This document shows positions 1 to 21,307 of a DNA stretch of 32,000 nucleotides, in pieces. Below the pieces are notes generated by a model. The model saw only the letters and a list, made by a program, of their open reading frames with translations. It was not told the DNA's origin and did no database searches. The stretch is taken from NCBI GenBank assembly GCA_943789275.1, contig CALSTM010000002.1, positions 1 through 32,000 on the forward strand. The letters run 5' to 3'. Each line of letters begins with the position of its first letter. Positions within the stretch are counted from its first letter, which is position 1. This DNA is from Candidatus Poseidoniaceae archaeon (GTDB lineage Archaea > Thermoplasmatota > Poseidoniia > Poseidoniales > Poseidoniaceae). A program made the position numbers and the translations under genes.

Positions 1-63
1 CTTCGTGAACTTCCAGCGATGAAGGGTAGACCTCCTCTTGAATGGATTTGAAAATCGCTTCAT
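1..63 (-). CDS. hypothetical protein, N-terminal fragment that runs off the window edge
   Basis: The ATG at 63..61 overlaps the TGA (65..63) of the upstream 73-aa ORF by 1 nt (TGATG). It reads MKRFSNPFKRRSTLHRWKFTK... to position 1 with no stop. A GGGGTGG SD-like motif lies 5 nt upstream. Not in the ORF track because it is truncated. Confidence 0.35.
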   Translation of the reverse strand, partial: MKRFSNPFKRRSTLHRWKFTK

Positions 64-284
64 CAAAACCACCCCTGCTCATATCCACATCGATAGCACC
101 AGTAGGAGAAGTGCTTGTATTCATCATTCCATTTCCTTGCTAGTCGAACTCGGTAATTCCTACCATTAGATCTGAACCAACATTTTCCTGTCGGGCAAGG
201 TGGGAAAGCGATGATTCTCCCATCTCGAACCACTGCACCCATCTTCTGATGCCATTCGACATCGTACGGAACATCATCGTTCAT
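63..284 (-). CDS. small Cys-containing protein (73 aa), possible zinc ribbon (CPTGKC ... CYRC)
   Basis: ORF-track entry. Its ATG (284..282) overlaps the TGA of the upstream 55-aa ORF as ATGA. GAGGAGGTGG lies just upstream. Four Cys are arranged as CxxxxC ... CxxC. No family recognised. Confidence 0.5.
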   Translation of the reverse strand: MNDDVPYDVEWHQKMGAVVRDGRIIAFPPCPTGKCWFRSNGRNYRVRLARKWNDEYKHFSYWCYRCGYEQGWF

Positions 285-448
285 TCTTCCACCTCCTCTG
301 CGTGGAGATCACAGCCTGCGGGACTGCCGTAAATGTAGTAATTACATGGGCAGGCATCACAGCATTCTAAACACCAGTAGCATCCACAAGAATACTCAGT
401 CCTGCTGAGATTACCACACGAAGTGCACCGGATTACTTTGCTACTCAT
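281..448 (-). CDS. Cys-rich miniprotein (55 aa, 10 Cys) with an acidic C-terminus
   Basis: Hand-translated; below the ORF-track cutoff. Sequence: MSSKVIRCTSCGNLSRTEYSCGCYWCLECCDACPCNYYIYGSPAGCDLHAEEVEE. GGAGGTG lies 7 nt upstream of the ATG at 448. There are ATGA overlaps at both ends (447..445 with the upstream ORF, 284..281 with the downstream ORF). Confidence 0.5.
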   Translation of the reverse strand: MSSKVIRCTSCGNLSRTEYSCGCYWCLECCDACPCNYYIYGSPAGCDLHAEEVEE

Positions 449-603
449 TCACACACCTCCTTTGAAGGGTGCAATGGATAAGATGCCTCACAGTATGGAC
501 AGAAGAATGCTGCTACATCGAATCCCCAAATGGATTCACGTAGATCATCAACCATCGGTTTGCCACATCGGTAGCAATTGACACGGATTTCGATGGTGTT
601 CAA
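445..603 (-). CDS. zinc-ribbon miniprotein (52 aa, CxxC ... CxxC), putative TTG start
   Basis: Hand-translated: (L/M)NTIEIRVNCYRCGKPMVDDLRESIWGFDVAAFFCPYCEASYPLHPSKEVCE. The TTG at 603..601 is preceded by GGAGGTGA (615..608). An in-frame TAA upstream excludes a longer ORF. The only in-frame ATG (555) would remove the first CxxC. The stop overlaps the next ATG. Confidence 0.4.
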   Translation of the reverse strand: MNTIEIRVNCYRCGKPMVDDLRESIWGFDVAAFFCPYCEASYPLHPSKEVCE

Positions 604-726
604 ACCATCACCTCCAAGAAGGTCTTGAGAACTGACTTGGCGTTACGATTGTTACCTTCTTCCAAGTCCTTCAGAGATTGCTCGATATTCTTGAGCAAAC
701 GAGTGGTAAAGATGTCATCGACCAGT

Positions 727-3700
727 CTATCGTTTATGGTCCCCGCTCCCAGACTTGAACTGGTGACCCGTAGTGCCAGTTACCTGTTCGAACGCGTTGT
801 CAATCGTTTGAATCCACTTATCCTCTGGTATTTGTTTCCAGAGGTGTTTTGGGATTTTTTCTCTCATGAAAGGTGGCAAAGGAAAACTTTGGTCAAAGGA
901 ACGGACCAAATGAGGTGCGAGTTCTTCTGTTATCCACTTAGGAGGGGATTCAATGTCTTTCCAAACACGATCCCTCAATTCCCGTAATTGTCTCGCACGA
1001 ATTCTCAGTTCAAGATCTGTCCAAGCGATGTCATTTCGTCGATGGAGTGCAATGCTTCGACTTGCGGCTTCGGACATCAAAGCTTTTCTGAGGTCTGGAT
1101 TCTTTTTCATTTGGCCCATTTGCACTGCCGTCTCCATTAGGTCTCGAATCCATGACAGTTCAGTTTTGGCGTCACTCTCTTCTTCTAACCCCGCTCGTTG
1201 TTGAATAAGAAGTTGGCAGAGGCGGAAGAATTGGAAATATCGCTCGAAGTCTGGTATTCTGCCACTGTCGTCAAACAACTTGGATGGGGGTTGAGAAAAC
1301 TGTTCACCTAATTTTTCCACATGACAGCAGAATGCAGTGTATGTGTAGTCCTTACTCAAGAAAAGTATGTGTCGAAGAAGAATTTGACCAAAATCGTAAT
1401 GCAAGAGCATCAATTCATGTCTTGACTCTGATTCGATTGAGAGTGCCTCTTTTGAAGCGATTAAAAGGGCGATTTCTCGTTGGGCATGTGATTCAAACAT
1501 CAGTAAATGCTGGGCTTGGTAATTAATTTCTTTCATTCTCCAAATGTTTTCAAGTTCTGGGTCATTTTTGAGAAACGTATTTTTTGCCTCCTCTTTGAGT
1601 CGATTCCATTTATCTGTTTTCCAGAATTCATCCATGCTAAGATATGACCCTTTCAACCATAATTGATAGATGAGGGCCGCTTTGGCTGGATTGGATGTTT
1701 GGAATTTGTCCATGTGTGCGATGATAAATTCACCAAGGAATTTGCAAGTTGATATTGAGAGGCTTGGAATCCTGCATCTCAATTCAAACAAGATTTGATC
1801 TGGTATTTCTTCGATTGAGTCCATCATTTTCTTGGGGTTTTTGAACCATATTTTCAATTCATTATCCAGGACGTTGGTTTTTTGATTGGTTCCTGCCCGA
1901 AGGATTGAGAGTAAGTATTGGCCAGTGAACTTTCGCTCTTCATTCTCAATGGGCTGGTTAATTCTGATTTCCATCTCAGAGTTATCGTACCCGTCGGAAA
2001 GGTAGGGCATTTGACCTGTTGGATCGATGGCTAAGAGGGCGTTCATTGCAAAGCGCATTGCTAAAGCAAGATCTTTGTGTTTCTCCCAACGCTTCACCTC
2101 TTCTGCAACGTAGGTGTTGATTGTGAAGGCAGTGAACAGTTTTGTGAAGATAGGGTGCTTTGGTAGCGCAGGGTTGTTTGGGTCGTCTAAGTCGATCAGA
2201 GCTTGCATATCCTCATCGGGGATTGTGATGTCTCTCAGGAATGCTGGAATTTTTTCCAGGACGTCGTGAAATTCATCTTCGCTGGGGATTTCATCTGAAT
2301 CAAACCAATCTTGCAGGATGTCAAGCGAGCATAGTGTTTCAAAAACACCGCTTTGGGTTTGAACAACACCTTCCTTGGCCAGTTTATCCCAAGCAACCAT
2401 GCATCGGAGTTTGCACGCAATCGGTGTTTCAAGTTCAGAAATCATCTGTATGGCAAGGATTTCTTCATCTGAAATGGTTGATAATCGATTCAACAGCGGG
2501 GCATCTCTGGGACACTCGAGCAGGTCCAGATTGGTGTTTGAGTTGACAAAAGAGTCAACAAATTTTGGCATCCCAAAGAATGTGCTGTTCATGCGCACAC
2601 AAAGGTTCAGAGCTTCTTCCATGCCAAGTTGAACACCAAAATGAGTATCCATGTAACCTGCTAAACTAACCGGAGTCATGGTATGTGGTTTTAGATGAAT
2701 CAATTCATCAGGGTTCAAACCAAATTTCTCGAAAGGAAACATATACAGCCCCATATGTTCTTGCCTCTCTCTGGTTATGAGGAGTAGGGGAACAACTCTC
2801 GAGATTTGCAGTAATGTTTCAAAAATACCAGTCCCAAAGTGATTAATCAGCACCTCCGCATCGTCGATAATCAATGGTAAGAGCGGTGCTTGGTCAATTC
2901 TCTCCAGTTGGTCTTTGATGGTCTCTACTGTCTTTAGGAGGGGGTCATGTCGTGCTGATTGATAGCAAATTTCAATCAATTCGGTGTCGAAACCAAGAGT
3001 TTGAAGAGCGAGCTTACTGATTGAGGTTTTTCCAGTGCAAGCGGGTGCTGACATGATGTAGAGGCCAGCAGAACCAGGCGAGAGATGTTCACAAATCATG
3101 GTATGATTATGAATATCGATGAATGGTGGGTGGAATTCACCTGGCATAACACCGGGGATTACAATGTTTTGAGATGGTATGATGCATCCGTCCCTTCTCG
3201 ATTCAAAAAGTGCATACGCCAACCAACATGCATCACGATTTGGGTGAAGTGATTTCAACCCCTTTCTTGCAAAAAGAACCGCTGAACGCACATCAATGGA
3301 ATATGCTTTTTCGGTGGAGATTTGAGGTATGGCCTGAGTCACATGCGTCCAGAAACCGATGCTGAAATCTCTGGCTGCCACGTCCCAAATCTCCCAACGT
3401 GTAGCAACCACGGCGTCAACGCCTCGTATGCAGAATTGTTCTGCTATAGGTCCACTTATCCCGGAAATGTCAGTTTCAACCGAAGTATCTCCACTTTTGC
3501 AAGCATTGAGGATGACAAGTCGTGGAGGTCCAGCACGGCAACATGAAGCAACAAATTCTGTTGCTGTTAGTCCCCCTGAGTGACCAATATAATGCCCGTC
3601 TTCGACGCTCATGTGGCCACAGAAGTGAATGATGTCCCAATGATTGGATGCAAGGATGGATCTGAGATTTTTTGGATCTTCATCTTCACGTGCACAAACA

Positions 3701-4149
3701 ACTGTTGTGTCAATGCCTCTTGATTCCATCAGTTGTTGAATTGTGTATGCCTCTTCTTGCGCTTTTGACAGTTCAATTGAAGATTCCAGATTGATGATCA
3801 AAGCCTTCTGACTGCCCCAGGGCAATCTGGGAATCCTTGTTTCAACCTTGAGGGGAATCACTTTGTACAATCCTTGGTAGGTGTCTTCATGCGGTTGAGA
3901 TTCTTCGATATCCTGGTTTGGAATTAGTGGATACATTTCGGGATTTTCTTGATTTCTCACGGCCCAATTCACCCAAAACTTTGCATTTCCACGGAAATCA
4001 AGCTTTGATGCCACCATCTCACCAAAGGCGTCGTTGAACTGTTCCGCATTGAACTTGTTGGCCCAAATGGATTCTGGGGATCTCCTGTTTGGAGTCGACC
4101 AAATTGAGTTTATGAGCATACTCAACGGAATCGGCCAGATCTCATCCAT
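727..4149 (-). CDS. CHAT (caspase-like) protease domain fused to a STAND/NB-ARC-like P-loop NTPase and a long helical C-terminal region (1140 aa)
   Basis: Long uninterrupted ORF. The CHAT dyad motifs are WDIIHFCGHM (aa 171-180) and RLVILNACKSG (Cys217). Walker A is SAPACTGKTS (aa 366-375) and Walker B is LPLIIDDAE (aa 424-432). These are followed by PLLLITRER, which resembles the NB-ARC hhhTTR motif. The remaining ~650 aa are helix-rich with no motif I recognise. Confidence 0.8.
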   Translation of the reverse strand: MDEIWPIPLSMLINSIWSTPNRRSPESIWANKFNAEQFNDAFGEMVASKLDFRGNAKFWVNWAVRNQENPEMYPLIPNQDIEESQPHEDTYQGLYKVIPLKVETRIPRLPWGSQKALIINLESSIELSKAQEEAYTIQQLMESRGIDTTVVCAREDEDPKNLRSILASNHWDIIHFCGHMSVEDGHYIGHSGGLTATEFVASCCRAGPPRLVILNACKSGDTSVETDISGISGPIAEQFCIRGVDAVVATRWEIWDVAARDFSIGFWTHVTQAIPQISTEKAYSIDVRSAVLFARKGLKSLHPNRDACWLAYALFESRRDGCIIPSQNIVIPGVMPGEFHPPFIDIHNHTMICEHLSPGSAGLYIMSAPACTGKTSISKLALQTLGFDTELIEICYQSARHDPLLKTVETIKDQLERIDQAPLLPLIIDDAEVLINHFGTGIFETLLQISRVVPLLLITRERQEHMGLYMFPFEKFGLNPDELIHLKPHTMTPVSLAGYMDTHFGVQLGMEEALNLCVRMNSTFFGMPKFVDSFVNSNTNLDLLECPRDAPLLNRLSTISDEEILAIQMISELETPIACKLRCMVAWDKLAKEGVVQTQSGVFETLCSLDILQDWFDSDEIPSEDEFHDVLEKIPAFLRDITIPDEDMQALIDLDDPNNPALPKHPIFTKLFTAFTINTYVAEEVKRWEKHKDLALAMRFAMNALLAIDPTGQMPYLSDGYDNSEMEIRINQPIENEERKFTGQYLLSILRAGTNQKTNVLDNELKIWFKNPKKMMDSIEEIPDQILFELRCRIPSLSISTCKFLGEFIIAHMDKFQTSNPAKAALIYQLWLKGSYLSMDEFWKTDKWNRLKEEAKNTFLKNDPELENIWRMKEINYQAQHLLMFESHAQREIALLIASKEALSIESESRHELMLLHYDFGQILLRHILFLSKDYTYTAFCCHVEKLGEQFSQPPSKLFDDSGRIPDFERYFQFFRLCQLLIQQRAGLEEESDAKTELSWIRDLMETAVQMGQMKKNPDLRKALMSEAASRSIALHRRNDIAWTDLELRIRARQLRELRDRVWKDIESPPKWITEELAPHLVRSFDQSFPLPPFMREKIPKHLWKQIPEDKWIQTIDNAFEQVTGTTGHQFKSGSGDHKR
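2700..3090 (-). other. P-loop NTPase core of the 1140-aa protein (approx. aa 355-480)
   Basis: The Walker A Lys373 codon is at ~3033..3031 and the Walker B Asp429/430 codons at ~2865..2860. Domain borders are approximate. Confidence 0.6.
3190..3810 (-). other. CHAT/caspase-like domain segment of the 1140-aa protein (approx. aa 115-320)
   Basis: The His codons of HFCGH lie at ~3627..3613 and Cys217 at 3501..3499. The His-to-Cys spacing of ~40 aa is typical of caspase-fold proteases. Domain borders are approximate. Confidence 0.6.
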
Positions 4150-4276
4150 CCAATCAAGCGACGGATGACACTCTCTCGAACCGAACGTCGTACGAGTTTT
4201 TTCAGAGCAATTTCGATGTTCGTTGCCCTTTTGTGAAAGGATTGGGATACTTCAAACGCGATATTGAACATCATCC

Positions 4277-4573
4277 TCATGCATCGTTCGATCCAAATGT
4301 TTCTTCATCCATTTTGAGGTAGACCTCCCCTTCATCTGAAAGCAGAATCCGTTCATCCTCGCTGATGTATCCCCAAGCACGATAGTTGAGGTATGAAGAA
4401 TCTCGAACGCCAACTCGCAATGCTGGTTCAGGTGGGCGGAACGTACCGATGTCGTCCTCGTTCAACGGAACCAGTGGTCGTGTGTCTGCATCGTAGTCAT
4501 CGGGTTGCTCGTTGAGGAGCTTCAGTTTGTCGATCAGGTCATCGGGCAGTTCGTCGTTTGTGTTTCTGCTCAT
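4277..4573 (-). CDS. highly acidic small protein (98 aa), unknown function
   Basis: ORF-track entry. Its ATG (4573) overlaps the TGA of the upstream HNH ORF as ATGA, which indicates translational coupling. It is rich in D/E (DELPDDLIDKL, EQPDDYDAD, LNEDDIG, SEDERILLSDEGE). No family recognised. Confidence 0.55.
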   Translation of the reverse strand: MSRNTNDELPDDLIDKLKLLNEQPDDYDADTRPLVPLNEDDIGTFRPPEPALRVGVRDSSYLNYRAWGYISEDERILLSDEGEVYLKMDEETFGSNDA

Positions 4574-5334
4574 GGTAGCAATCCTCCAAAGAATTCAACC
4601 AGTGCTTTGGCGAAATCCACTTGGTCGCTTTTCGCCTGATTGTGGGTTTCGCAATACAGCGTGAGGTTCCAAATGCGTTGCGGCCCTCCCAAAGAGAAGG
4701 GAATGAAACGGTGGTCGTACTGCAACCTCGTCGTTGCCGTGCATCGTTGCCTGAAGTGGTCGATGTGGGTGCAGCGGCCCCGATCTCGCAAGGCGACGGC
4801 AATCTTCACATCCTGTGGAATGTGCCTCGAAATCTCTTGATGGAGGATGTTGCGTTGGACGAATCGCATCGCCGTCAAGTAAGCCTCTTCACCTGCTTTG
4901 GCGATGATGCTTACTTCGTCACCCTCGTCCCTGAGCACGCTTTGCTCGACGGAATGCAACACCTGGTCAAACCGTACATTCCCTAAATTCAGAGACATTG
5001 GAGGAGGTGGTTGAGTTGGCGGAACCACTGGTGCAGGAAGTGGTCGTGGTTGCTGAATCAACAACAAGCAATCCGGCATTCCTTCCCACGCCTTCAATCG
5101 AAATCCGAGCCCTCTCACGAGGTAGATCTGTGAGGATGGTCGGGTCGCCTTTGGATTCAGTGGAACCATGGTGGCCATGGATTGACTGACCATGGCGGAC
5201 CATTCCGCAACGTGCATGCTACGGCGAAATTTCCCTGATTTGACCGTCACTTTGCTGGCGTTCGTGATGATTTGGAGCGATGCGAACTTGGCCAAAACAT
5301 CACCACCTCTCTGCATTGGGCAATGTTCGGTCAA
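4570..5334 (-). CDS. HNH endonuclease domain protein (254 aa): unknown N-terminal domain, Pro-rich linker, C-terminal HNH
   Basis: The C-terminal sequence RDRGRCTHIDHFRQRCTATTRLQYDHRFIPFSLGGPQRIWNLTLYCETHNQAKSD fits the HNH pattern (C..C ... DH.iP.s.GG ... NL..lC...N..K), at roughly nt 4614..4785. The linker is QQPRPLPAPVVPPTQPPPP. The start could instead be Met7 (5316). Confidence 0.7.
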   Translation of the reverse strand: MTEHCPMQRGGDVLAKFASLQIITNASKVTVKSGKFRRSMHVAEWSAMVSQSMATMVPLNPKATRPSSQIYLVRGLGFRLKAWEGMPDCLLLIQQPRPLPAPVVPPTQPPPPMSLNLGNVRFDQVLHSVEQSVLRDEGDEVSIIAKAGEEAYLTAMRFVQRNILHQEISRHIPQDVKIAVALRDRGRCTHIDHFRQRCTATTRLQYDHRFIPFSLGGPQRIWNLTLYCETHNQAKSDQVDFAKALVEFFGGLLP

Positions 5335-5596
5335 CCTTCGACCGAACTTCGGTCAACGCTCGGTCAATCTTCGGTTGAACTTCGGTCGAAAAGGCGGCGA
5401 GGAGGCTGGTTGCCTCGTCGATGAGTCCTGCTTGGAGCAAGGCGTGAGCCGACCGAATGGTTGCTTCGAGTTGAGCCACTTGGGTTTGGGGAGCGGAGAC
5501 TGGTACGTCCGCCACCAACTTTGAGTCCGTACCCTCTGATTGGATTTGAAGACTGAAACAAGACGGTTTTATTCGGGCAGTACCCATTGCGGCCAT
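5300..5596 (-). CDS. hypothetical protein (98 aa), doubtful
   Basis: ORF-track entry in the same orientation as its neighbours. It overlaps the 139-aa ORF by 28 nt and the HNH ORF by 35 nt. Its C-terminus (TEVQPKIDRALTEVRSKVDRTL) is simply the translation of the 11-bp repeat array, so the region may be non-coding. Confidence 0.3.
   Translation of the reverse strand: MAAMGTARIKPSCFSLQIQSEGTDSKLVADVPVSAPQTQVAQLEATIRSAHALLQAGLIDEATSLLAAFSTEVQPKIDRALTEVRSKVDRTLPNAERW
5325..5390. repeat. six tandem copies of an 11-bp unit (consensus CTTCGGTCAAC; copy 2 reads CTTCGACCGAA, its complement strand carries the core as TTCGGTCGAAG)
   Basis: Read directly from the sequence: GTTCGGTCAAC / CTTCGACCGAA / CTTCGGTCAAC / GCTCGGTCAAT / CTTCGGTTGAA / CTTCGGTCGAA. 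The copies are contiguous with an exact 11-bp register. The array straddles the annotated start (5334) of the HNH ORF. Confidence 0.85.
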
Positions 5597-8772: not shown

Positions 8773-11166
8773 TCACTGCAATTTTTTGATCTTTGGAGGA
8801 GTCAAAAATACAAAGGCACCGACAATTGCTAACAGTGCGACAACCGTGAGGCCCCAGAACATTCCTTCTGAGACTCCGTCCGAACCTGAGGCAGAATCTT
8901 CACTGGCGGGTGAGGCTTCAATGGCGATAGCAATCTGGGCCTCATTGTTGTCTTCAATTCCCTCAGAAATTTCGGAACCTCGGTCGATGACGGCGCGTAA
9001 TTGCTTCTGCCCACTGTCTTCGGGAACTTGCCAGTCAAACGTTACGTAGGCAACTGAGCCGGGCTGAAGAACGGGAATCGTATCGTAATCAATCAACTGT
9101 GAGTCAACCTCACAACGAACTGAAATCATGGATGCTTCTGCCTGTCCAATGTTGCGGACAAATACTCGGATGGACAGAATATCTCCGGCACGGATTTCTT
9201 CACTTCCAACATCAATTTCTTCGACAACCAGGTCAGGTAAGGAGAGTACTTCCAAATCCATTATTCGCTCATGGCATGAGTTTTGGTCGCACAGAGACAC
9301 GAGGACCGAAGTAAAGCCAGGAGTCGGCGGGACAACAGTGATGGTTTTGTTGAAGACATCAATCGATGCCCATGACCGGTTGGTCGAGGCTGTAAGTCCC
9401 GTTGAATCAACATCTGAGTAATCAAAAGGAAGAACAGTAGAAACGGCCAACTCGACTGGAATTAAAGACTGGAATTCCTGCAAAACTGGCGTATCATCAA
9501 CAGTGGCAACATTGGTGATGAATGTTTCACTCCACGTGTTTCCTGAGGAATCTACGACGGTTGTAAGAATTGTAGCCTGTCCGCTTGCTTCAGGTTGAAG
9601 AGAAATTCGAATATCACCTTGAGTTAAATCAACCGTGACCAATTCCGGATTTGAGTTGGTGAAACTGACCACGAGGTCTTCACTAACGGTTCGGTCATCC
9701 GTGCATCGATACAAGAACGGAAGGATACGCCCTCCTCCATCTTCAGTGAGGGATTGGTCACCAACTGGGATGCATTCAGGGTCTTCATCCCATTCGATGT
9801 CGTAGCCTCCCGTAACGCTCATGGAAGTGATTTCCAAAGCAGTCGTACTTTCATTGCCAAGCGAATCCCAGGTAAACCATGACTTCAGTTCGACTTTCAA
9901 GGAAGTATCACCAGCGTCCATAAACTGCCCGACAGGGAAGCTATGGGAAAGCGACGGATTGAGGGCAACCGCTTCGTTGGTTACCAGCTCATCGTTGACG
10001 AACAGAAGCCAGCGTGAATAGACCGGGTCGAGCCCATCGACATCTCCAAAAATCCGTCCTTGAAGTGAAAGGGTTGGGTCGTTCACATCGACGGTAATAT
10101 CGGAAATACACGCATCGGTCGTGGTGAAGCGAAGTTGTGTGTAAGCCTGGTCTGGAAGCAACATATGCTCATCCATTGCAGCAAAATCTGAGAAGCTCAT
10201 TCCATCGCTTGAGAAGGCGTATTCCAAGAGTACGTCATCTTGAGATTCGTTGTCCAATGAATAGTGAACACGCCCAATCCGTTGCTGAGGTGGCGTCGCT
10301 ATGATCTCGCTGGTCCATGCGCCACTGGTTCCACTGACGCTTGACTGGAGGCCACAATCGGAGAGAGCCATGTTGTTGGAGTTTCCCTTCTCCAAGTCAA
10401 GAGCCATTACGGGCATGGAATGGCCGGAGAATTCAGCCTGTGCTGAGCCGTATTCGCCTCCATACCATGGAGTCCTCATTGTGACTCGCATTCCAACTGC
10501 ATCCACCTCCAATCGTGTATCGTCGGTTGAACCAACCGAGACATAATCCAAAGTGAGAATCGAGGACTGGAGCGATTCCCATGTCCATTCGGTCAATTCA
10601 GAAACGTTTGATGACCAAGGATTGGACAGATAAGCAAGGGAACTTTGCGTGTTGGAAAAAGTCACTAACGATTCATATTGTCCGCCGTAATTGATCGAAA
10701 ATCGGACCGAATCTTGGTAAAGTGGACCTGGAACTGAAAAGGCAACAACAACATCCACCGCTAGAATCTGGTACTGCGTTGAACCGAAAGCATTGAACGA
10801 TGTCAATTCAATCACCGGCCCAGTTGACCAGGAGATGGACCCATCTGGCATGCCGAGGGAGTTGTTGGATTCTGTAGGCGTCGATTGGGCCCAGAAGGTC
10901 ATGCTGTCAAGGTTTTGAGGTCGGTGATGAACCATCGTCATTCGTTGGTCAGCGACCATGGCCTCGGTATAGGTCGCCGGGTCTTCTGAAAAAGATGTGA
11001 ATGCACCAAGGCTCCACTCTGACGGTTGGGAAAAAGAACCATCCGGAAACAAATCCACGGTGTTTGTTTGATGGACTGAACGCCCAGCTACCGAACCAAA
11101 TGGTGCCAACAGAAGTATTGAAAGAAGAAAAACGACCGTTGTGAACCTTGCCGTGTTCGCTCGCAT
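8773..11166 (-). CDS. large secreted surface protein with a CARDB-like domain and a C-terminal TM anchor
   Basis: Signal/anchor peptide MRANTARFTTVVFLLSILLLAPFGSVAG from ATG 11166; the track's longer start is 11241. The CARDB-like segment is LPDLVVEEIDVGSEEIRAGDILSIRVFVRNIGQ...VTFDWQVPEDSGQKQLRAVID...NNEAQIAI (~8926..9245). The C-terminus is an S/D/E-rich linker, then FWGLTVVALLAIVGAFVFL, then PPKIKKLQ. Confidence 0.8.
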   Translation of the reverse strand: MRANTARFTTVVFLLSILLLAPFGSVAGRSVHQTNTVDLFPDGSFSQPSEWSLGAFTSFSEDPATYTEAMVADQRMTMVHHRPQNLDSMTFWAQSTPTESNNSLGMPDGSISWSTGPVIELTSFNAFGSTQYQILAVDVVVAFSVPGPLYQDSVRFSINYGGQYESLVTFSNTQSSLAYLSNPWSSNVSELTEWTWESLQSSILTLDYVSVGSTDDTRLEVDAVGMRVTMRTPWYGGEYGSAQAEFSGHSMPVMALDLEKGNSNNMALSDCGLQSSVSGTSGAWTSEIIATPPQQRIGRVHYSLDNESQDDVLLEYAFSSDGMSFSDFAAMDEHMLLPDQAYTQLRFTTTDACISDITVDVNDPTLSLQGRIFGDVDGLDPVYSRWLLFVNDELVTNEAVALNPSLSHSFPVGQFMDAGDTSLKVELKSWFTWDSLGNESTTALEITSMSVTGGYDIEWDEDPECIPVGDQSLTEDGGGRILPFLYRCTDDRTVSEDLVVSFTNSNPELVTVDLTQGDIRISLQPEASGQATILTTVVDSSGNTWSETFITNVATVDDTPVLQEFQSLIPVELAVSTVLPFDYSDVDSTGLTASTNRSWASIDVFNKTITVVPPTPGFTSVLVSLCDQNSCHERIMDLEVLSLPDLVVEEIDVGSEEIRAGDILSIRVFVRNIGQAEASMISVRCEVDSQLIDYDTIPVLQPGSVAYVTFDWQVPEDSGQKQLRAVIDRGSEISEGIEDNNEAQIAIAIEASPASEDSASGSDGVSEGMFWGLTVVALLAIVGAFVFLTPPKIKKLQ

Positions 11167-11250
11167 AGTGGTGCTAGACAACCGAATACACTTGAATGCA
11201 AGGGTGCTATGTGCCCCTGATTTGTCAATTGAGACAAACATCCCACTGCG

Positions 11251-11293: not shown

Positions 11294-11366
11294 GGCTGTG
11301 ATGGTGTAGGGGTTAGCACGGCAGATTGTGGTTCTGCCAGCCCGAGTTCGATTCTCGGTCACGGCC
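11294..11366 (+). tRNA. tRNA-His (anticodon GTG) with an encoded G-1
   Basis: Folded by hand. Acceptor stem GCTGTGA/TCACGGC. G-1 (11294) pairs with discriminator C73 (11366), the tRNA-His hallmark. D stem GTGT/GCAC. Anticodon stem GCAGA/TCTGC with loop TTGTGGT (anticodon at 11328..11330). The variable loop is 4 nt. T arm CCGAG-TTCGATT-CTCGG. No CCA is encoded. A T4 run follows. Confidence 0.85.
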
Positions 11367-11375
11367 CCTTTTACT

Positions 11376-16633: not shown

Positions 16634-16765
16634 AGGGTCGCATAACCCCTAACCGAATGAACCTATGGCTTCGGCCACAAGAACTGACATCCACCCTTCT
16701 TGAACTTTCGAATATATCAAACGCGAATGAGTAAAGGTATTGAAGCCAGTGCATTTCCAATAACC

Positions 16766-19700
16766 ATGGGCAACAGAGTGCTTGGTGCAGTCTTGATGGT
16801 GAGCATCATGCTCATCACTCCTTTCGCCTCTATGGCAAGCCATACGCCACTTGCTGACTCAGAACTTGATGCCACCGATGAAAGGCTCCTCGCGATTCAT
16901 TACGACCAGGATTTCAACACCTCTGATGGATTTGCCCTTTCGAACATCACCATTGACGCTTCAACCGGTGAAGCAGAGATTGACCACCCGACGCTTACAT
17001 GGCAATCCATTGCCAATCCAAGTTTGAGATACCCGCGTGCTGCTGGGTGTGCAGCATACATCGAAGATACGGAGGAGATTTACTTGATGGGTGGTCGATA
17101 CGATCCAGACCCCGTACAATCTGGCGATGAAACCTCGACACGGAGCATTGAGGTTTTTAGCCAAGCATCCACATCATGGCAACTCAGCGGTAGCCAAATG
17201 CCGGTCGAACAGATGTACTTTGATTGCGCTGCTATCGGCTCGGTCATTTATGCGGTTGGGGATTATCATCCGTTCGCAACGCCTGAAGTTCGTGCAGAAG
17301 GCATTTTACAAATTTACAACACAAGTAACAACACATGGAGTGAAGGTGCATTCATGCCAGGCAATACCGGTGTTGGACTGGCAAGTGTTGACGACCTTGG
17401 CGGTTTTATTTACACCGCAGGTGGTGTAAGCAGGAAAGATCGCTCAGATATTTCGAACGCCACGCTCCGATATAATCCGCAAACCGACACATGGGACCAA
17501 ATGGCCGATATGAATGTCGCTCGGCATTCGTTCACACTTACGGAATTCCACGGTAAACTGTATGCGCTCGGGGGTATTTCTCGACAGTACGACCCGGTTT
17601 CCAACCAATACTTCATTGCCCCTACGAACCATACAGAGGTGTACGATGCACAGACCGACACCTGGACAAACCACACCGATTTACCGTTCGAAATTGCAGC
17701 TCATGCCTCGACCGTCTTCAACGATGAAATACTCATTTCTGGCGGCGTAACCGGTTCAGGATGGGGCGCACAAACCAAAGAAGTGCATGGGTACAATCCC
17801 CTCACACAGACGTGGACAATACATTCTGATTTACCGCATGACATGTACGACCATACCATTACTGCAATCAACGAATCCGTCGTCTATGCCACTGGCGACT
17901 CCTCTTCATACCGGTTTTCCAGTTGGTCCTCGAACTACAGAGACGTAACTGGAATCTACAATAATTCTGATTCACAGTCCGGCTGGATTACATCGAATGT
18001 CATTGACCTTCGCCAGAACACAAATGGAATCGCCTCACCGGTTCGATTGGAATTTGGTGGCGCTGCTCCAGCGGATACGGAACTTCAACTGCAATACCGA
18101 GTGGGGTTGAACCCTTCCGAGGTGAGTACAACTTTGTGGAGCCCCCTCGGACCGGGAAACATCTCTCAATTTTTCCAACCTGGAGAGTTTTCATTGGCTG
18201 CTTATGGTGAAGGCATGTCGTTCATCCAATACCGCATCCAAATGAGTACATCAGAACTCGTCGAATGGTCCACTCCCGATTTAGATTCGGTCGAGATTTT
18301 CTCAGAAGAGGCCACACTTCTCTCACCCATACCACCATCAATGCATCCAAATGCGGCCCATATCACGATTGAATCGTTCCACTCCTCTTTTGGTGCAAAC
18401 GCCAACTACACGCTTCTTTTGCACCAAACAAATGCTGATGGATTTAATCTGCCATCTGAAGATTCGGCTAAAATCACCTGGAACAACACCACATCGACGT
18501 ATTCCATCGAAGACCAAGGAGGCATTCTACGTCAATCCAGTGTTGATGTAACGGTACATTCTTCCACGCTCCAAGGCGATACAATGCATTGGGACTTAGC
18601 TGTCAACGAAGGTTTTGCAAGTGATTATTTGGTCCTTGAAATCCAAACTCAAAGTCAGCTTCACAGCGCCTATCGCTCGTCATCCGCCATTGAGATTCAA
18701 AGTATACTCGATGTCAGCGCCATTGATTATTCTTCCAGTTTTTCGAGCAATGGAGACGAATCGCTATCGAACCTCGAAGTGTTTCCTGATGGCGCTGAAA
18801 TCGAAGTAACCATCGATCACAGTTTCAATGAATCAGGGACTCAACTGCTCTATGGAACTGTAGAAGCACGTCTCCATATTGACATCGAGAATCCTCATTC
18901 CGGATGGTTCAATACGACCAGCACCTGGGAGGAACTCACAACTGGAGAAGAAACTGTACTCCTTTACACGCTAAACAACGACAGTTCAGGTCATGCGAGC
19001 ATATGGATTGAAGCAAGAACGCAAGATGACCTCACCCTCAATGTTGACCCTTCCTTCAAACACATCCTGGTGAACGTCGATGCACCCGTGCAGATGTCGA
19101 ATACTCCACTCATTGGCTCTTACCTCAACGAGGAAGCAGCACGTTCGGTTGAATTTGAGTTCTATGATGTAGGTGGATTCAGTACCGAATCGGTCCAAGC
19201 ATATCTATGGATTGAGGCATTGCACGATGCAAATGAAGACGGGGAGTATGCTGCATCCGAACACATCCAGACAGAAGTTTTCATTTCGAATGAAGAGAAC
19301 AACTGGTTGCTCAATCTGACCGTAAACGATACTGCAAACGACGACCATCAAATGGTCTATGTGACCTTGGAAGGCACAAACTTGGCAGGAAAGAATATTC
19401 GAGAATCAACACTTGACCCGAACAGTGGTTCCACTTCATGGATGAGTCGAACACCGGAAAACGCAAACATTTCCTCTCTTGAGCCGTTTTCGGAACTTGT
19501 AGAAAGTGGTATACAGCGTATTGAGCCGACCGGAAGAATCGGTTGGAACGTGGTCGTTTCGGATTCAAATGCACTTACGGACATCTTCGAAGTTCGGTTG
19601 ATTCTCGGCAAGGACGAAACACTCGGAATACGGTATGTACCAACACAAAACATTTGTGAATCTCTCGACGCACGTCTTTTGATTGACAGCACATGTTTTG

Positions 19701-21307
19701 CTACTCAAGTGAATGAATCCTATTCCATTGACTTCACTGCACAGATCGATTGGGCATTTACTGCTTCAGGACTCGACATCGGACACCTTGAGGTTCAAGT
19801 CGATGATTACGACGGAACGCAAACAATGGAAGTACTCAACCAATGGAGCCTTGAGCGTGAGTTGAGTGTCGAACTTGATTCACTCAAGGACGTTGATGGC
19901 ATCGTTCAAGGCGAACTCTCGACGGGATGGAGCATTGTCGCCGGTGATTCAATTCAAGTGAATGCAACGATTAAGCATTTGACCTCGAACACATCGTACA
20001 ACGGACCTGTATCCGTGTTCTGGAGAGGTAAAATCCAGGAGCAATTCTTCTCCGAGAGTTTCTCTGTGGAAGTCGTTGACGGTGAATTATCCGCACAAAT
20101 ACAGGCACCAACCGGTGCGGGATTATGGCATCAATCGATTCTTGAGATTTGGGACCCTTACAATTCAGAACAATTTTACTCCATGGATTTGCCAAATATG
20201 TTGCTCGATAACAGTCCGCCTTTGCTCATTCCTTCAGCCATGACCGCAGGCATATCTCGTTACCATTTGGAAGCGGTCGAGATTGGGGTCAACATCGATG
20301 AGAGCAGCTCCTGGTCTGGAAACCTCACCCTTCACTGTCAAGTCCGCTCGTTGGATTTCGAATGGCCAATTCTCACACAAATACGGGAGCCAACTACGGT
20401 ATTCGATGGAAAAACAATGTTCAGTTTCATGTTCAATTTTGCCGAACAGGGTGACCCCTCTACGCTTTCCACACAATCAAACATTGTCTGTTGGGCGCTG
20501 GGATTCGATGATGCTGGACTCGAACTCACATCATCCAACGGTAATTCAGAGAACAACCCTTGGCTGTCCACTGCATTGAGTAACATTGGACCGGACCTCG
20601 CCATCCAAACGGTCGGCTTTGAAGGAGGCGACTCAAAAGGTTCCAAAATGAGAATAGCCGTAGAAGTCGTCAGCCTAGGCGAAACGATTGAAACTCGGTT
20701 TAACGTCACCTTTAGCATTGTTCAAGACGGGGTGACAAACGTCGTTGGGCGGGAACTGATTCCAGGAATGCAAGAGAACGCTGAAGTGGAAATTCGTTCA
20801 ACACTTACCGTTCCGAGTGGCGATTGGACACTGCTCATTGAGATCGATGCAGAACAACACATTTGGGAACTCAGTGAAACAAACAACGTATGGTCAAAGA
20901 ATTATTCTCAAGAGAACGATGGATCTTCTTTTGCTGCCCCTGCAGCAGCCGGCGGTGGAGTGATACTGCTCGTCGCATTGGTGATGTTGATGAGAAAAAG
21001 AAACGGTTCATCAGAGGACGATGTGGAAACTCTTGAAGACAGAAAGCCACTGAAAGGACCGCCACCTCGTGCCCAGCCCTCCACCCTTCCTGGCCACCTT
21101 GCCGGTCCCCCTCAAATGGCCGTGGAAGAAACTGCAGGTGAGCAACAAGAAACCCATGCCGTTGAATTCGAAACCGTCGAAAGTTATGCACAGTTACCCG
21201 GAGGCGGTGATTACCGGTATGACGAAGGGCAAACCATCTATTCTGGCACAGGTATTGGTACTTGGAAACAAAACCCAGACCAAACCTTCACACGTATCGA
21301 AGAGTGA
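16766..21307 (+). CDS. giant surface protein: signal peptide, six-bladed Kelch beta-propeller, long Ig-like region, CARDB-like domain, TM helix, ~110-aa Pro-rich cytoplasmic tail
   Basis: Six Kelch-type blades: YLMGGRYD, IYAVGDY, IYTAGGVS, LYALGGIS, ILISGGVTG, VYATGDSS (~17030..17900). The CARDB-like segment GPDLAIQTVGFEGG...NNVWSKNY lies at ~20589..20905. The TM helix AAPAAAGGGVILLVALVMLMRKR lies at ~20932..21000. The track start at 16700 is a TTG. Candidate ATG starts are 16727 and 16766 (MGNRVLGAVLMVSIMLITPFASMA). An AATATATC TATA-like element at 16711..16718 favours 16766. Confidence 0.8.
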   Translation: MGNRVLGAVLMVSIMLITPFASMASHTPLADSELDATDERLLAIHYDQDFNTSDGFALSNITIDASTGEAEIDHPTLTWQSIANPSLRYPRAAGCAAYIEDTEEIYLMGGRYDPDPVQSGDETSTRSIEVFSQASTSWQLSGSQMPVEQMYFDCAAIGSVIYAVGDYHPFATPEVRAEGILQIYNTSNNTWSEGAFMPGNTGVGLASVDDLGGFIYTAGGVSRKDRSDISNATLRYNPQTDTWDQMADMNVARHSFTLTEFHGKLYALGGISRQYDPVSNQYFIAPTNHTEVYDAQTDTWTNHTDLPFEIAAHASTVFNDEILISGGVTGSGWGAQTKEVHGYNPLTQTWTIHSDLPHDMYDHTITAINESVVYATGDSSSYRFSSWSSNYRDVTGIYNNSDSQSGWITSNVIDLRQNTNGIASPVRLEFGGAAPADTELQLQYRVGLNPSEVSTTLWSPLGPGNISQFFQPGEFSLAAYGEGMSFIQYRIQMSTSELVEWSTPDLDSVEIFSEEATLLSPIPPSMHPNAAHITIESFHSSFGANANYTLLLHQTNADGFNLPSEDSAKITWNNTTSTYSIEDQGGILRQSSVDVTVHSSTLQGDTMHWDLAVNEGFASDYLVLEIQTQSQLHSAYRSSSAIEIQSILDVSAIDYSSSFSSNGDESLSNLEVFPDGAEIEVTIDHSFNESGTQLLYGTVEARLHIDIENPHSGWFNTTSTWEELTTGEETVLLYTLNNDSSGHASIWIEARTQDDLTLNVDPSFKHILVNVDAPVQMSNTPLIGSYLNEEAARSVEFEFYDVGGFSTESVQAYLWIEALHDANEDGEYAASEHIQTEVFISNEENNWLLNLTVNDTANDDHQMVYVTLEGTNLAGKNIRESTLDPNSGSTSWMSRTPENANISSLEPFSELVESGIQRIEPTGRIGWNVVVSDSNALTDIFEVRLILGKDETLGIRYVPTQNICESLDARLLIDSTCFATQVNESYSIDFTAQIDWAFTASGLDIGHLEVQVDDYDGTQTMEVLNQWSLERELSVELDSLKDVDGIVQGELSTGWSIVAGDSIQVNATIKHLTSNTSYNGPVSVFWRGKIQEQFFSESFSVEVVDGELSAQIQAPTGAGLWHQSILEIWDPYNSEQFYSMDLPNMLLDNSPPLLIPSAMTAGISRYHLEAVEIGVNIDESSSWSGNLTLHCQVRSLDFEWPILTQIREPTTVFDGKTMFSFMFNFAEQGDPSTLSTQSNIVCWALGFDDAGLELTSSNGNSENNPWLSTALSNIGPDLAIQTVGFEGGDSKGSKMRIAVEVVSLGETIETRFNVTFSIVQDGVTNVVGRELIPGMQENAEVEIRSTLTVPSGDWTLLIEIDAEQHIWELSETNNVWSKNYSQENDGSSFAAPAAAGGGVILLVALVMLMRKRNGSSEDDVETLEDRKPLKGPPPRAQPSTLPGHLAGPPQMAVEETAGEQQETHAVEFETVESYAQLPGGGDYRYDEGQTIYSGTGIGTWKQNPDQTFTRIEE

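Follow-up and report, generated by a model that had tools for sequence, protein, structure and literature searches.

In SAVED-CHAT and in TPR-CHAT/Csx29 (Craspase), a fused or bound sensor switches on a CHAT protease, which then cleaves a specific protein encoded by a neighboring gene. Caspase-like peptidases have also been documented in the effector position of bacterial STAND/iSTAND proteins (PMC7159879). Here we describe an archaeal gene whose product carries a CHAT protease, a P-loop NTPase and an alpha-solenoid in a single chain. It lies in a 32,000-nucleotide stretch of DNA from a Candidatus Poseidoniaceae archaeon (GenBank assembly GCA_943789275.1, contig CALSTM010000002.1, positions 1 to 32,000 of the forward strand), referred to as a whole as the window, and occupies an open reading frame (ORF) of 1140 codons on the minus strand at 727..4149. 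The copy in the window is a truncated allele; intact members of the family have 1166 residues and stand in a cassette whose two further genes the window does not have, none of which could be seen in the initial annotation, made from the letters and a list of ORFs. We think it fairly probable that this is a Poseidoniales-specific, single-chain effector-switch-sensor protein of STAND/NLR design that acts by an immune mechanism, a function that we infer by analogy with Avs, NLR and Apaf-1 proteins and with sensor-activated CHAT proteases.

The general design is not new, being already known in bacteria. Like the bacterial protease-STAND proteins, the archaeal protein has an N-terminal caspase-superfamily protease, a central STAND-type switch and a C-terminal repeat sensor, and its effector is likewise predicted to depend on oligomerization for activation (PMC13581612; PMC7159879). 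Unlike them, it has an NTPase and a sensor with no detectable sequence relationship to any described clade, its sensor is an alpha-solenoid and not a beta-propeller, its host is an archaeon, and it comes with a dedicated 206-residue partner and, usually, a linked gene for a B12-binding radical SAM enzyme. The initial annotation had regarded the sensor as novel and knew of no characterized archaeal example. That caspase-like protease-STAND fusions are established in bacteria (PMC7159879) was not visible from the sequence and lowers this novelty. What does appear new, judging by the sequence searches, is an archaeal family specific to Poseidoniales whose NTPase and sensor have no detectable sequence relatives; the dedicated partner of unrecognized fold, the recurrent link to a B12-radical-SAM gene and the natural truncation at a tRNA-Tyr hot spot are new as well. 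The family would be a sequence-isolated archaeal case of the protease-NLR design, through which immunity in prokaryotes is connected with the logic of the eukaryotic apoptosome and inflammasome.

With Avs proteins, represented by the SIR2-STAND protein EfAvs5 (9jap), the family shares a single chain made of effector, NOD and helical sensor. In the effector position, however, it has a CHAT protease in place of SIR2 or a nuclease, no PADLOC Avs model matches it, and the low TM-scores (0.20-0.25) mean that only the general layout is common. What activates SAVED-CHAT and Craspase is cyclic oligoadenylate or a Cas effector with bound target RNA, and not an NTPase; unlike them, the protein described here has no SAVED or TPR match in Pfam, and no CRISPR array or cas genes are found in the window.

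The gene and its protease domain

The initial annotation needs correction at the level of the gene, which lies on the minus strand, has lost the 3' end of its ORF and has 44 leading codons that are probably untranslated. The true start is probably M45 (window 4017), because most homologues and the product of Ca. Poseidonia alphae begin at the equivalent position: MVASKLDFRG is the N-terminus of P0002, of P0005 and of the NCBI-called 1166-residue Ca. Poseidonia alphae product (proteins are cited by P numbers and loci by L numbers). Codons 1-44 (4018..4149; this and all further coordinates within the gene are on the minus strand) would then be an untranslated leader. A chance origin of the ORF is excluded by 27 homologous clusters, by the invariant motif residues described below and by an excess of synonymous changes relative to the 91%-identical gene of L003 (163 synonymous against 97 non-synonymous codon changes), so the comparisons indicate that the gene is real and under selection. 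The GC content is 41-46% across the gene and its downstream flank (window 1-4000) and about 48-50% in the rest of the window, consistent with a foreign or island origin.

For structural analysis we used an AlphaFold2 model of P0002, a full-length relative that is 88% identical to the window protein (its numbering is the window numbering minus 44). The model (mean pLDDT 81.4, pTM 0.74) contains the CHAT domain, a nucleotide-binding domain (NBD), a lid, winged-helix-like (WH-like) modules and a solenoid. The N-terminal region, residues 45-98 (3856..4017), is of low confidence or disordered, with pLDDT <50 for model residues 1-48 and disorder up to about residue 92 in window numbering; it nevertheless holds the conserved motifs W..WG..NQ, PES and IPRLPWGS.

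The CHAT (caspase-like) domain follows at residues ~99-329 (3163..3855). The initial annotation had recognized it from a His/Cys dyad in typical context, and this assignment holds: Pfam PF12770 matches residues 126-272 of the window protein (E 2.7e-15) at 57 bits, far over its gathering score of 24, and is present in all 27 homologues. H175 (3625-3627), H179 (3613-3615) and C217 (3499-3501) are invariant in 28/28 sequences of the alignment on which all invariance counts are based, in H..GH and (L/N)AC..G contexts. In a Foldseek search of the PDB the best match of the protease domain was SAVED-CHAT (8tl0, E 3e-4), and a coral caspase (6wi4) was found at E 1.8e-2. Most of the alpha/beta domain is modeled with pLDDT >80, with low-confidence loops after the catalytic His and Cys. 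Sequence and model thus agree on a predicted caspase-like alpha/beta fold with an intact predicted dyad.

A STAND-like NTPase module and a helical sensor

Residues ~345-489 (2683..3117) form a predicted P-loop NBD, recognized by its motifs, its invariant residues, a beta-alpha-beta core in the model and Foldseek. It contains a Walker A motif (APACTGKT, 3025-3048), a Walker B motif (PLIIDDAE, 2854-2877) and a sensor-1-like arginine, R460 (2770-2772), which sits at the end of the LLLI strand that follows Walker B and is assigned to sensor 1 by position only. G373 and K374 of Walker A, D429, D430 and E432 of Walker B, and R460 are invariant in 28/28 sequences, T375 in 27/28; the His/Cys dyad and the Walker residues are therefore kept in every homologue, as the initial annotation had required. 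Its motifs IIHFCGH (residues 173-179), LVILNACKSG (211-220, with Cys217), LPLIIDDAE (424-432) and PLLLITRER (454-462) were placed correctly; SAPACTGKTS lies at 367-376 and not at 366-375. Its comparison of PLLLITRER with the NB-ARC 'TTR' motif fails, since a Thr precedes R460 in only 11/28 sequences and PF00931 does not match.

The NBD is followed by a helical lid and two small winged-helix-like alpha/beta modules (residues ~493-689, 2083..2673, from the secondary structure of the model). A GMP motif at residues 526-528, resembling GxP, is partly conserved, with G in 18/28 and P in 21/28 sequences. The remainder, residues ~694-1130 (760..2070), is an all-helical alpha-solenoid modeled at high pLDDT, a putative sensor, and lacks the last helices of the intact relatives. 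The solenoid is predicted to span ~500 residues, and in the window protein ~640 helical residues follow the P-loop module, in agreement with the ~650 helix-rich C-terminal residues noted initially, which resolve in the model into an all-alpha solenoid and the helical lid and WH-like modules. The mean majority fraction falls from 0.67 in CHAT and 0.63 in the NBD to 0.50 in the lid/WH region and 0.49 in the solenoid, the least conserved part, a sequence pattern expected of a conserved engine joined to a faster-evolving sensor.

The effector-NTPase-sensor architecture is thereby borne out, with CHAT given by Pfam, the order of NBD, lid, WH-like modules and solenoid by the AlphaFold model, and the whole by a Foldseek alignment of 1033 columns to EfAvs5 (9jap; E 3.9e-3, probability 0.96). 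The P-loop NTPase itself stands on its invariant Walker A and B residues, the model and the Foldseek matches to ORC/Cdc6, RFC and EfAvs5; no P-loop profile of Pfam, NCBIfam or PADLOC matches the window protein. Only the most divergent clade (P0026/L010) gives weak matches, to AAA (21.6 bits, cut-off 21.2), AAA_22, nSTAND_NTPase5 (20.6 bits, cut-off 34) and AAA_16 (17.3 bits, cut-off 32.6). Profile searches of the PDB with the full-length protein and with the NTPase alone gave chance-level matches, to an ADP-phosphofructokinase (E 0.01) and a GST (E 0.44), which we discarded.

We judged the STAND assignment by the definition that reportedly goes back to Leipe et al. in 2004. Of its elements we found a Walker A motif, a Walker B motif of the hhhhDD/E type, an Arg after the next strand, C-terminal repeats and an N-terminal effector, and did not find a significant profile match to NACHT, NB-ARC, AAA_16, nSTAND or the like. 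For lack of such a match to the window protein we file it as STAND-like by predicted architecture and fold and place it in no named clade. The label 'STAND/NB-ARC-like' given initially is accordingly kept in its first half, for layout and fold, and dropped in its second: membership in NB-ARC or NACHT was rejected, with no match in Pfam (PF00931 included), NCBIfam or PADLOC, and an hhalign comparison with NACHT domains that recovered Walker A only.

The closest structural matches of the NTPase region in the PDB were Orc4, Cdc6/Orc1 and RFC subunits (E 7e-4 to 1e-2), and together with the AAA match just above its cut-off in one family member (21.6 against 21.2 bits) they would suit a conventional AAA+ ATPase of ORC/Cdc6 or clamp-loader type, which would act as an ATP-fueled protease or remodeling machine and not as a STAND switch. 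We regard this as quite improbable. The NBD, lid and winged-helix region does share the fold of ORC/Cdc6 and RFC, but this NBD-lid-WH layout is common to STAND and ORC/Cdc6 proteins, so that the Foldseek matches do not discriminate between them; moreover, ORC/Cdc6 and RFC have neither a protease domain nor a long solenoid, play another biological role and show no detectable sequence similarity to the family. The hhhhDD.E Walker B, the invariant Arg, the long C-terminal solenoid and the N-terminal effector are STAND hallmarks, the 1033-column alignment is to a STAND protein, EfAvs5, and nSTAND_NTPase5 is matched at the same level as AAA.

A small family of marine Poseidoniales

A search of 5.8 billion clustered proteins returned the 27 homologous clusters, which have identities of 31-92% and are all ~1140-1200 residues long. 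A profile of the NTPase and helical region without CHAT, run with HMMER against 1.84 billion representative proteins, gave 30 matches at E <= 0.001, of which 6 are full-length family representatives and the rest fragments, with nothing beyond the family. In GTDB, with one genome per species, seven loci were found, all in metagenome-assembled genomes (MAGs) of Poseidoniales or of unclassified Thermoplasmatota/Euryarchaeota. On this sequence evidence the family is tiny and appears confined to marine Poseidoniales (Marine Group II). The archaeal host seen in the initial annotation is confirmed by these relatives in Poseidoniales MAGs and by the neighbors of the gene in the window, namely Cbf5 (with DKCLD and PUA domains), an archaeal-type cytidylate kinase and an EMC3/DUF106 insertase.

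Intact relatives belong to a cassette

Locus L002, with 99.4% DNA identity over window 757-4459, has an intact gene, an ORF of 1210 codons that yields 1166 residues from the consensus start and keeps the conserved C-terminus, which is also intact in P0200 and P0204. The gene is followed on the same strand by an ORF of 206 residues and then by a gene of ~470 residues for a B12-binding radical SAM protein. The same trio of CHAT, 206-residue and radical SAM genes occurs in L004, L008, L009, L012-14, L016 and L019. Gaps within the cassette are minimal, and the start and stop codons of the CHAT and 206-residue genes overlap in L004, L009 and L016. CHAT proteins of different cassette clades are only 33-41% identical.

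Among the fetched loci, the 206-residue protein is found only beside a CHAT-family gene; it co-diverges with it at 35-41% identity, and its family, with 24 clusters, is as small as the CHAT family. Its model is all-alpha (pLDDT 87, pTM 0.86) and has no fold match in the PDB (best E 0.6) and no match in family libraries. These negative results led us to reject a HEPN-like or gasdermin-like effector; the HEPN idea had come only from conserved E.H.R and RHN motifs and is unsupported.

The match of the radical SAM protein to the PADLOC model PDC-M51A is close to full-length (E 8e-149 and 3e-153), and a gene of this type stands beside the CHAT gene in L002 (4615-6024), L004 (4313-5737), L008, L009, L012-14, L016 and L019. 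The intact loci are in this respect like the candidate system PDC-M51, whose component A is a B12-binding radical SAM protein. They are unlike it in that the CHAT and 206-residue proteins match no PADLOC model; the window has no radical SAM ORF at all, family homology stopping at 760. The radical SAM family is large (>1355 proteins). Bacterial homologues lie in settings like defense islands (L017, 5201-6544; L018, 7001-8404), and in L017 the radical SAM gene is paired not with CHAT and 206-residue genes but with a P-loop kinase-like gene of 204 residues, which its stop codon overlaps. An 1851-residue CHAT protein near the homologue in L018 was considered as a relative and rejected, its similarity being confined to CHAT. 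The 206-residue protein is thus a tight partner, and the radical SAM link, though frequent, could reflect either function or no more than synteny.

Two clades, L005/L010 and L011, lack both partner genes. In them giant NACHT or NACHT-TPR proteins of 1423 and 1502 residues adjoin the CHAT-family genes (L010, 1439-5710, minus; L011, 3723-8231, plus). The survey of neighborhoods proposed in the initial annotation therefore brought out a conserved 206-residue/radical SAM cassette and NACHT(-TPR) neighbors in L010 and L011, and no known defense gene in the window.

The cassette might also be read as part of metabolism, with the CHAT protein as a protease that has a regulatory or maturation role in a B12-radical-SAM pathway and processes or controls, for example, a 206-residue protein modified by the radical SAM enzyme, and with the NTPase as chaperone or switch. 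The order CHAT, 206-residue protein, radical SAM is tight and on one strand in six divergent loci, the radical SAM protein is conserved like a metabolic enzyme and also occurs in a housekeeping context, and the NCBIfam models nearest to it are C-methyltransferases of natural-product pathways and of pathways for peptides made on the ribosome and modified after translation (RiPPs). Those models are matched far below their cut-offs, however (95-115 against 700 bits), and the CHAT and 206-residue proteins are absent where the radical SAM gene stands alone. Two CHAT clades have no radical SAM gene and adjoin NACHT-TPR proteins instead, the distribution of the family is very narrow and its flanks are variable, and the radical SAM protein matches a PADLOC model for defense candidates. 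We consider a pathway protease unlikely.

Proposed mechanism

If the protein is an immune effector of STAND/NLR design, its resting, nucleotide-bound monomer would be auto-inhibited. A trigger, probably a viral protein or one from a mobile element, would bind the solenoid; binding would lead to nucleotide-dependent oligomerization, and this would bring the CHAT domains together and activate them by proximity. The activated protease would cleave a target, and the infected cell would stop growing or die. The best candidate target would be the co-evolving 206-residue protein, which we propose as substrate because SAVED-CHAT and Craspase offer the precedent of a neighbor-encoded target; host proteins would be the alternative. 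In most clades the B12-binding radical SAM enzyme would complete the cassette. A function in defense is made more plausible by the variable-island context, by the NACHT-TPR neighbors in two clades and by the partner that is a PADLOC candidate.

A more specific version, which we hold to be unlikely as it stands, is that the intact locus is a hitherto undescribed three-component immune system specific to Marine Group II, in which the protease would cleave the 206-residue protein into a toxic or signaling fragment and the radical SAM enzyme would be a second effector or would modify the substrate or the trigger. If true, it would be the first functional link of caspase-like proteolysis and radical-SAM chemistry in antiviral defense, and its carriers would belong to an archaeal group that ranks among the most abundant in the surface ocean. 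The 206-residue partner is in any case a concrete, testable substrate candidate, and the B12-radical-SAM gene is a second testable component.

Several results weigh against the immune reading and its details. No STAND profile and no PADLOC defense-system model matches the protein itself (window and intact L002 proteins in PADLOC), and hhalign aligned it to the two genuine NACHT domains of neighboring genes over the Walker A motif only, with a probability of 1-6%. The 32-kb window holds no other defense gene or CRISPR array, and there are no cas genes among its annotated ORFs. The role of the 206-residue protein as substrate or effector is a guess, because it has no recognizable fold. The radical SAM protein is unusually conserved, at 51-61% identity across archaea and bacteria; its gene stands alone among housekeeping genes in the archaeal contig L015 (2169-3521), and the copies in cassettes are no closer to one another than to this stand-alone copy, for which reasons its linkage could reflect synteny rather than function. 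PDC-M51, finally, is only a candidate system, and a search for it in a literature library found nothing.

The window copy is truncated at a tRNA-Tyr gene

In the window, family homology ends at codon 1130 (window 760), and the C-terminal ~72-80 residues, near-invariant positions included, are gone; none of the six frames of the window encodes this tail. Comparison of the window with L001, L002 and L003 places at the junction (737..762, minus strand) the 3' end of a tRNA-Tyr(GUA), consisting of T-arm, acceptor strand and CCA, fused in frame to codon 1130. The fusion yields the tail QFKSGSGDHKR and a stop at 727-729, with the last 10 codons coming from the tRNA-Tyr fragment, and the break reads GGGTCAC followed by CAGTTCAAGTCTGGGAGCGGGGACCA. 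We rejected a frameshift as the cause of the lost C-terminus, since the tail is found in none of the six frames and the junction is a clean tRNA fusion, and an assembly artefact, since many independent assemblies share this fused end. The fragment was likewise rejected as part of the tRNA-His of the window or of a complete local tRNA.

The 24-nucleotide sequence CAGTTCAAGTCTGGGAGCGGGGACCA occurs in >120 marine metagenome contigs (L020-L139), usually as the 3' end of a gene starting ...GCTCAGTTGGTAGAGCACCTGACTGTAG. In L020, Rfam detects a tRNA over its full length (52.9 bits, E 7e-11); the anticodon loop holds an insertion of 31 nucleotides, the anticodon is GUA, and from its sequence we take the gene to be an intron-containing tRNA-Tyr(GUA) with an encoded CCA and an intron of ~26-31 nucleotides. 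ARAGORN reported no tRNA in 20 motif-bearing loci, a miss explained by the intron, as Rfam does detect the gene. Many contigs carry only the 3' fragment of the tRNA-Tyr, behind unrelated DNA, and in L045 and L070 a fragment lies 3-3.4 kb from a full copy. This pattern of full copies and fragments bears the signature of an integration hot spot. Small elements have been reported to integrate beside tRNAs in Poseidoniales (bioRxiv 10.1101/2025.08.03.668216); the tRNA-Tyr hot spot fits them, and the flank in the window could be such an element. The tRNA motif had no match in a viral contig collection.

Positions 1..736 (minus strand) are DNA that normally follows an intact tRNA-Tyr: window 2-767 is 90-93% identical to the DNA behind the intact tRNA-Tyr in L020, L071, L083 and L121. 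The 5' part of the tRNA-Tyr is not in the window. Because the flank matches post-tRNA DNA and the window lacks the 5' part, the alignments indicate that the 3' end of the gene was joined to the T-arm of the tRNA-Tyr, with loss of the last helices of the sensor, the 206-residue gene and the radical SAM gene. The flank also contains three small Cys-rich ORFs on the minus strand within 63-603, at 445-603, 281-448 and 63-284 (52, 55 and 73 residues), with CxxC pairs and a zinc-ribbon-like appearance; the DNA that carries them could be a chromosomal flank or a small integrated element.

The truncation is not private to the window. A UBA124 MAG (L001) has the same junction with 16 more codons kept, and its type of product (...SATDQFKSGSGDHKR) is found in P0197, P0203 (35 contigs) and P0207. 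The window allele corresponds to the L001 form with a further in-frame deletion of 16 codons. A common natural allele cut at a tRNA-Tyr hot spot documents turnover of the locus in nature and amounts to a sensor truncation made by nature; how frequent it is could be set against virus pressure over metagenomic time series.

Since the end of the sensor and both partners are missing, the activity of the window allele is doubtful, and this derived allele may be inactive or deregulated. A serious possibility, to which we nonetheless give less than even weight, is that the window copy is by now a functionless gene in decay, produced by the rearrangement at the tRNA-Tyr, in which stop codons have not yet accumulated. 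The conserved C-terminal ~72-80 residues are absent in every frame, the window has neither the 206-residue gene nor the radical SAM gene, and an upstream gene, ORF B, has a premature stop that shortens it from 150 to 98 residues. Relative to the intact L002 allele, the gene has 5 non-synonymous and 3 synonymous changes, against 97:163 relative to L003, a ratio suggestive of relaxed selection in which the difference is not significant (Fisher p = 0.27). Against decay speak the remaining 1130 codons, which are intact and preserve all catalytic and Walker residues, the in-frame nature of the extra 16-codon deletion, and the abundance of the tRNA-fused allele in independent assemblies (P0203 on 35 contigs, P0197 and P0207). 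The L005/L010 and L011 clades, moreover, are naturally without partners, and by their example the stand-alone protein may be able to function.

The upstream block and the rest of the window

Three genes on the same strand precede the CHAT gene in the Poseidonia clade, encoding 71 residues, 247-254 residues with an HNH-like motif, and 150 residues. In the window (all on the minus strand) the block, and with it the homology between strains, begins with the 71-residue ORF at 5300..5515, which includes a tandem repeat at 5321-5387 with an 11-nucleotide period and a peptide like TEVxxKxDRxL. ORF A (4570..5334, 254 residues) has an HNH-like motif at its C-terminus, with sub-threshold matches to three HNH Pfam models (E 0.017-0.08, residues 196-240) and a weak match to the HNH region of IscB. 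L001, L003 and L019 have it too, and only the Poseidonia clade keeps such an HNH-like ORF upstream of the CHAT gene. The start of ORF B (4277..4573), which encodes an acidic protein of 98 residues with no family match, overlaps the stop of ORF A. ORF B has 150 residues in L001, L003 and L019, where it overlaps the upstream ATG of the long ORF, and ends at a premature TGA in the window and in L002.

Near-identical strains carry this block behind three different upstream flanks, an EMC3/cmk/cbf5 cluster, a Tudor/EF-hand protein or an MFS transporter, which would suit a block (71-residue ORF, HNH-like ORF, ORF B, CHAT protein and partners) that is cargo of a mobile element and serves that element rather than the host, for instance by addiction, by shutting out competing elements or by counter-defense. 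The junction with a tRNA-Tyr fragment resembling an att site, the lower GC content (41-46% against about 49%) and the small elements reported beside Poseidoniales tRNAs (bioRxiv 10.1101/2025.08.03.668216) point the same way, as do recombinases near two intact cassettes, where serine recombinase (resolvase) genes lie a few kb downstream (L012, 7030-7818, minus; L019, 18530-19540, minus). We found no integrase, replication or structural genes inside the block, however, the window is part of an 820-kb chromosomal contig and lies among housekeeping genes, and the viral contig collection does not contain the tRNA motif. Cargo that serves only its element is thus very unlikely in our judgment, and cargo status and a role in defense are not mutually exclusive.

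The Tudor-like and EF-hand proteins upstream of the block have 532 and 315 residues (L001, 2059-3657; L003, 5403-6350), a combination that is unusual for an archaeon. The remainder of the window is ordinary chromosome. It includes two large predicted CARDB surface proteins (8773-11241, minus; 16700-21307, plus), one of 1535 residues with Kelch beta-propeller repeats, whose genes flank a tRNA-His (11295-11368) and housekeeping genes.

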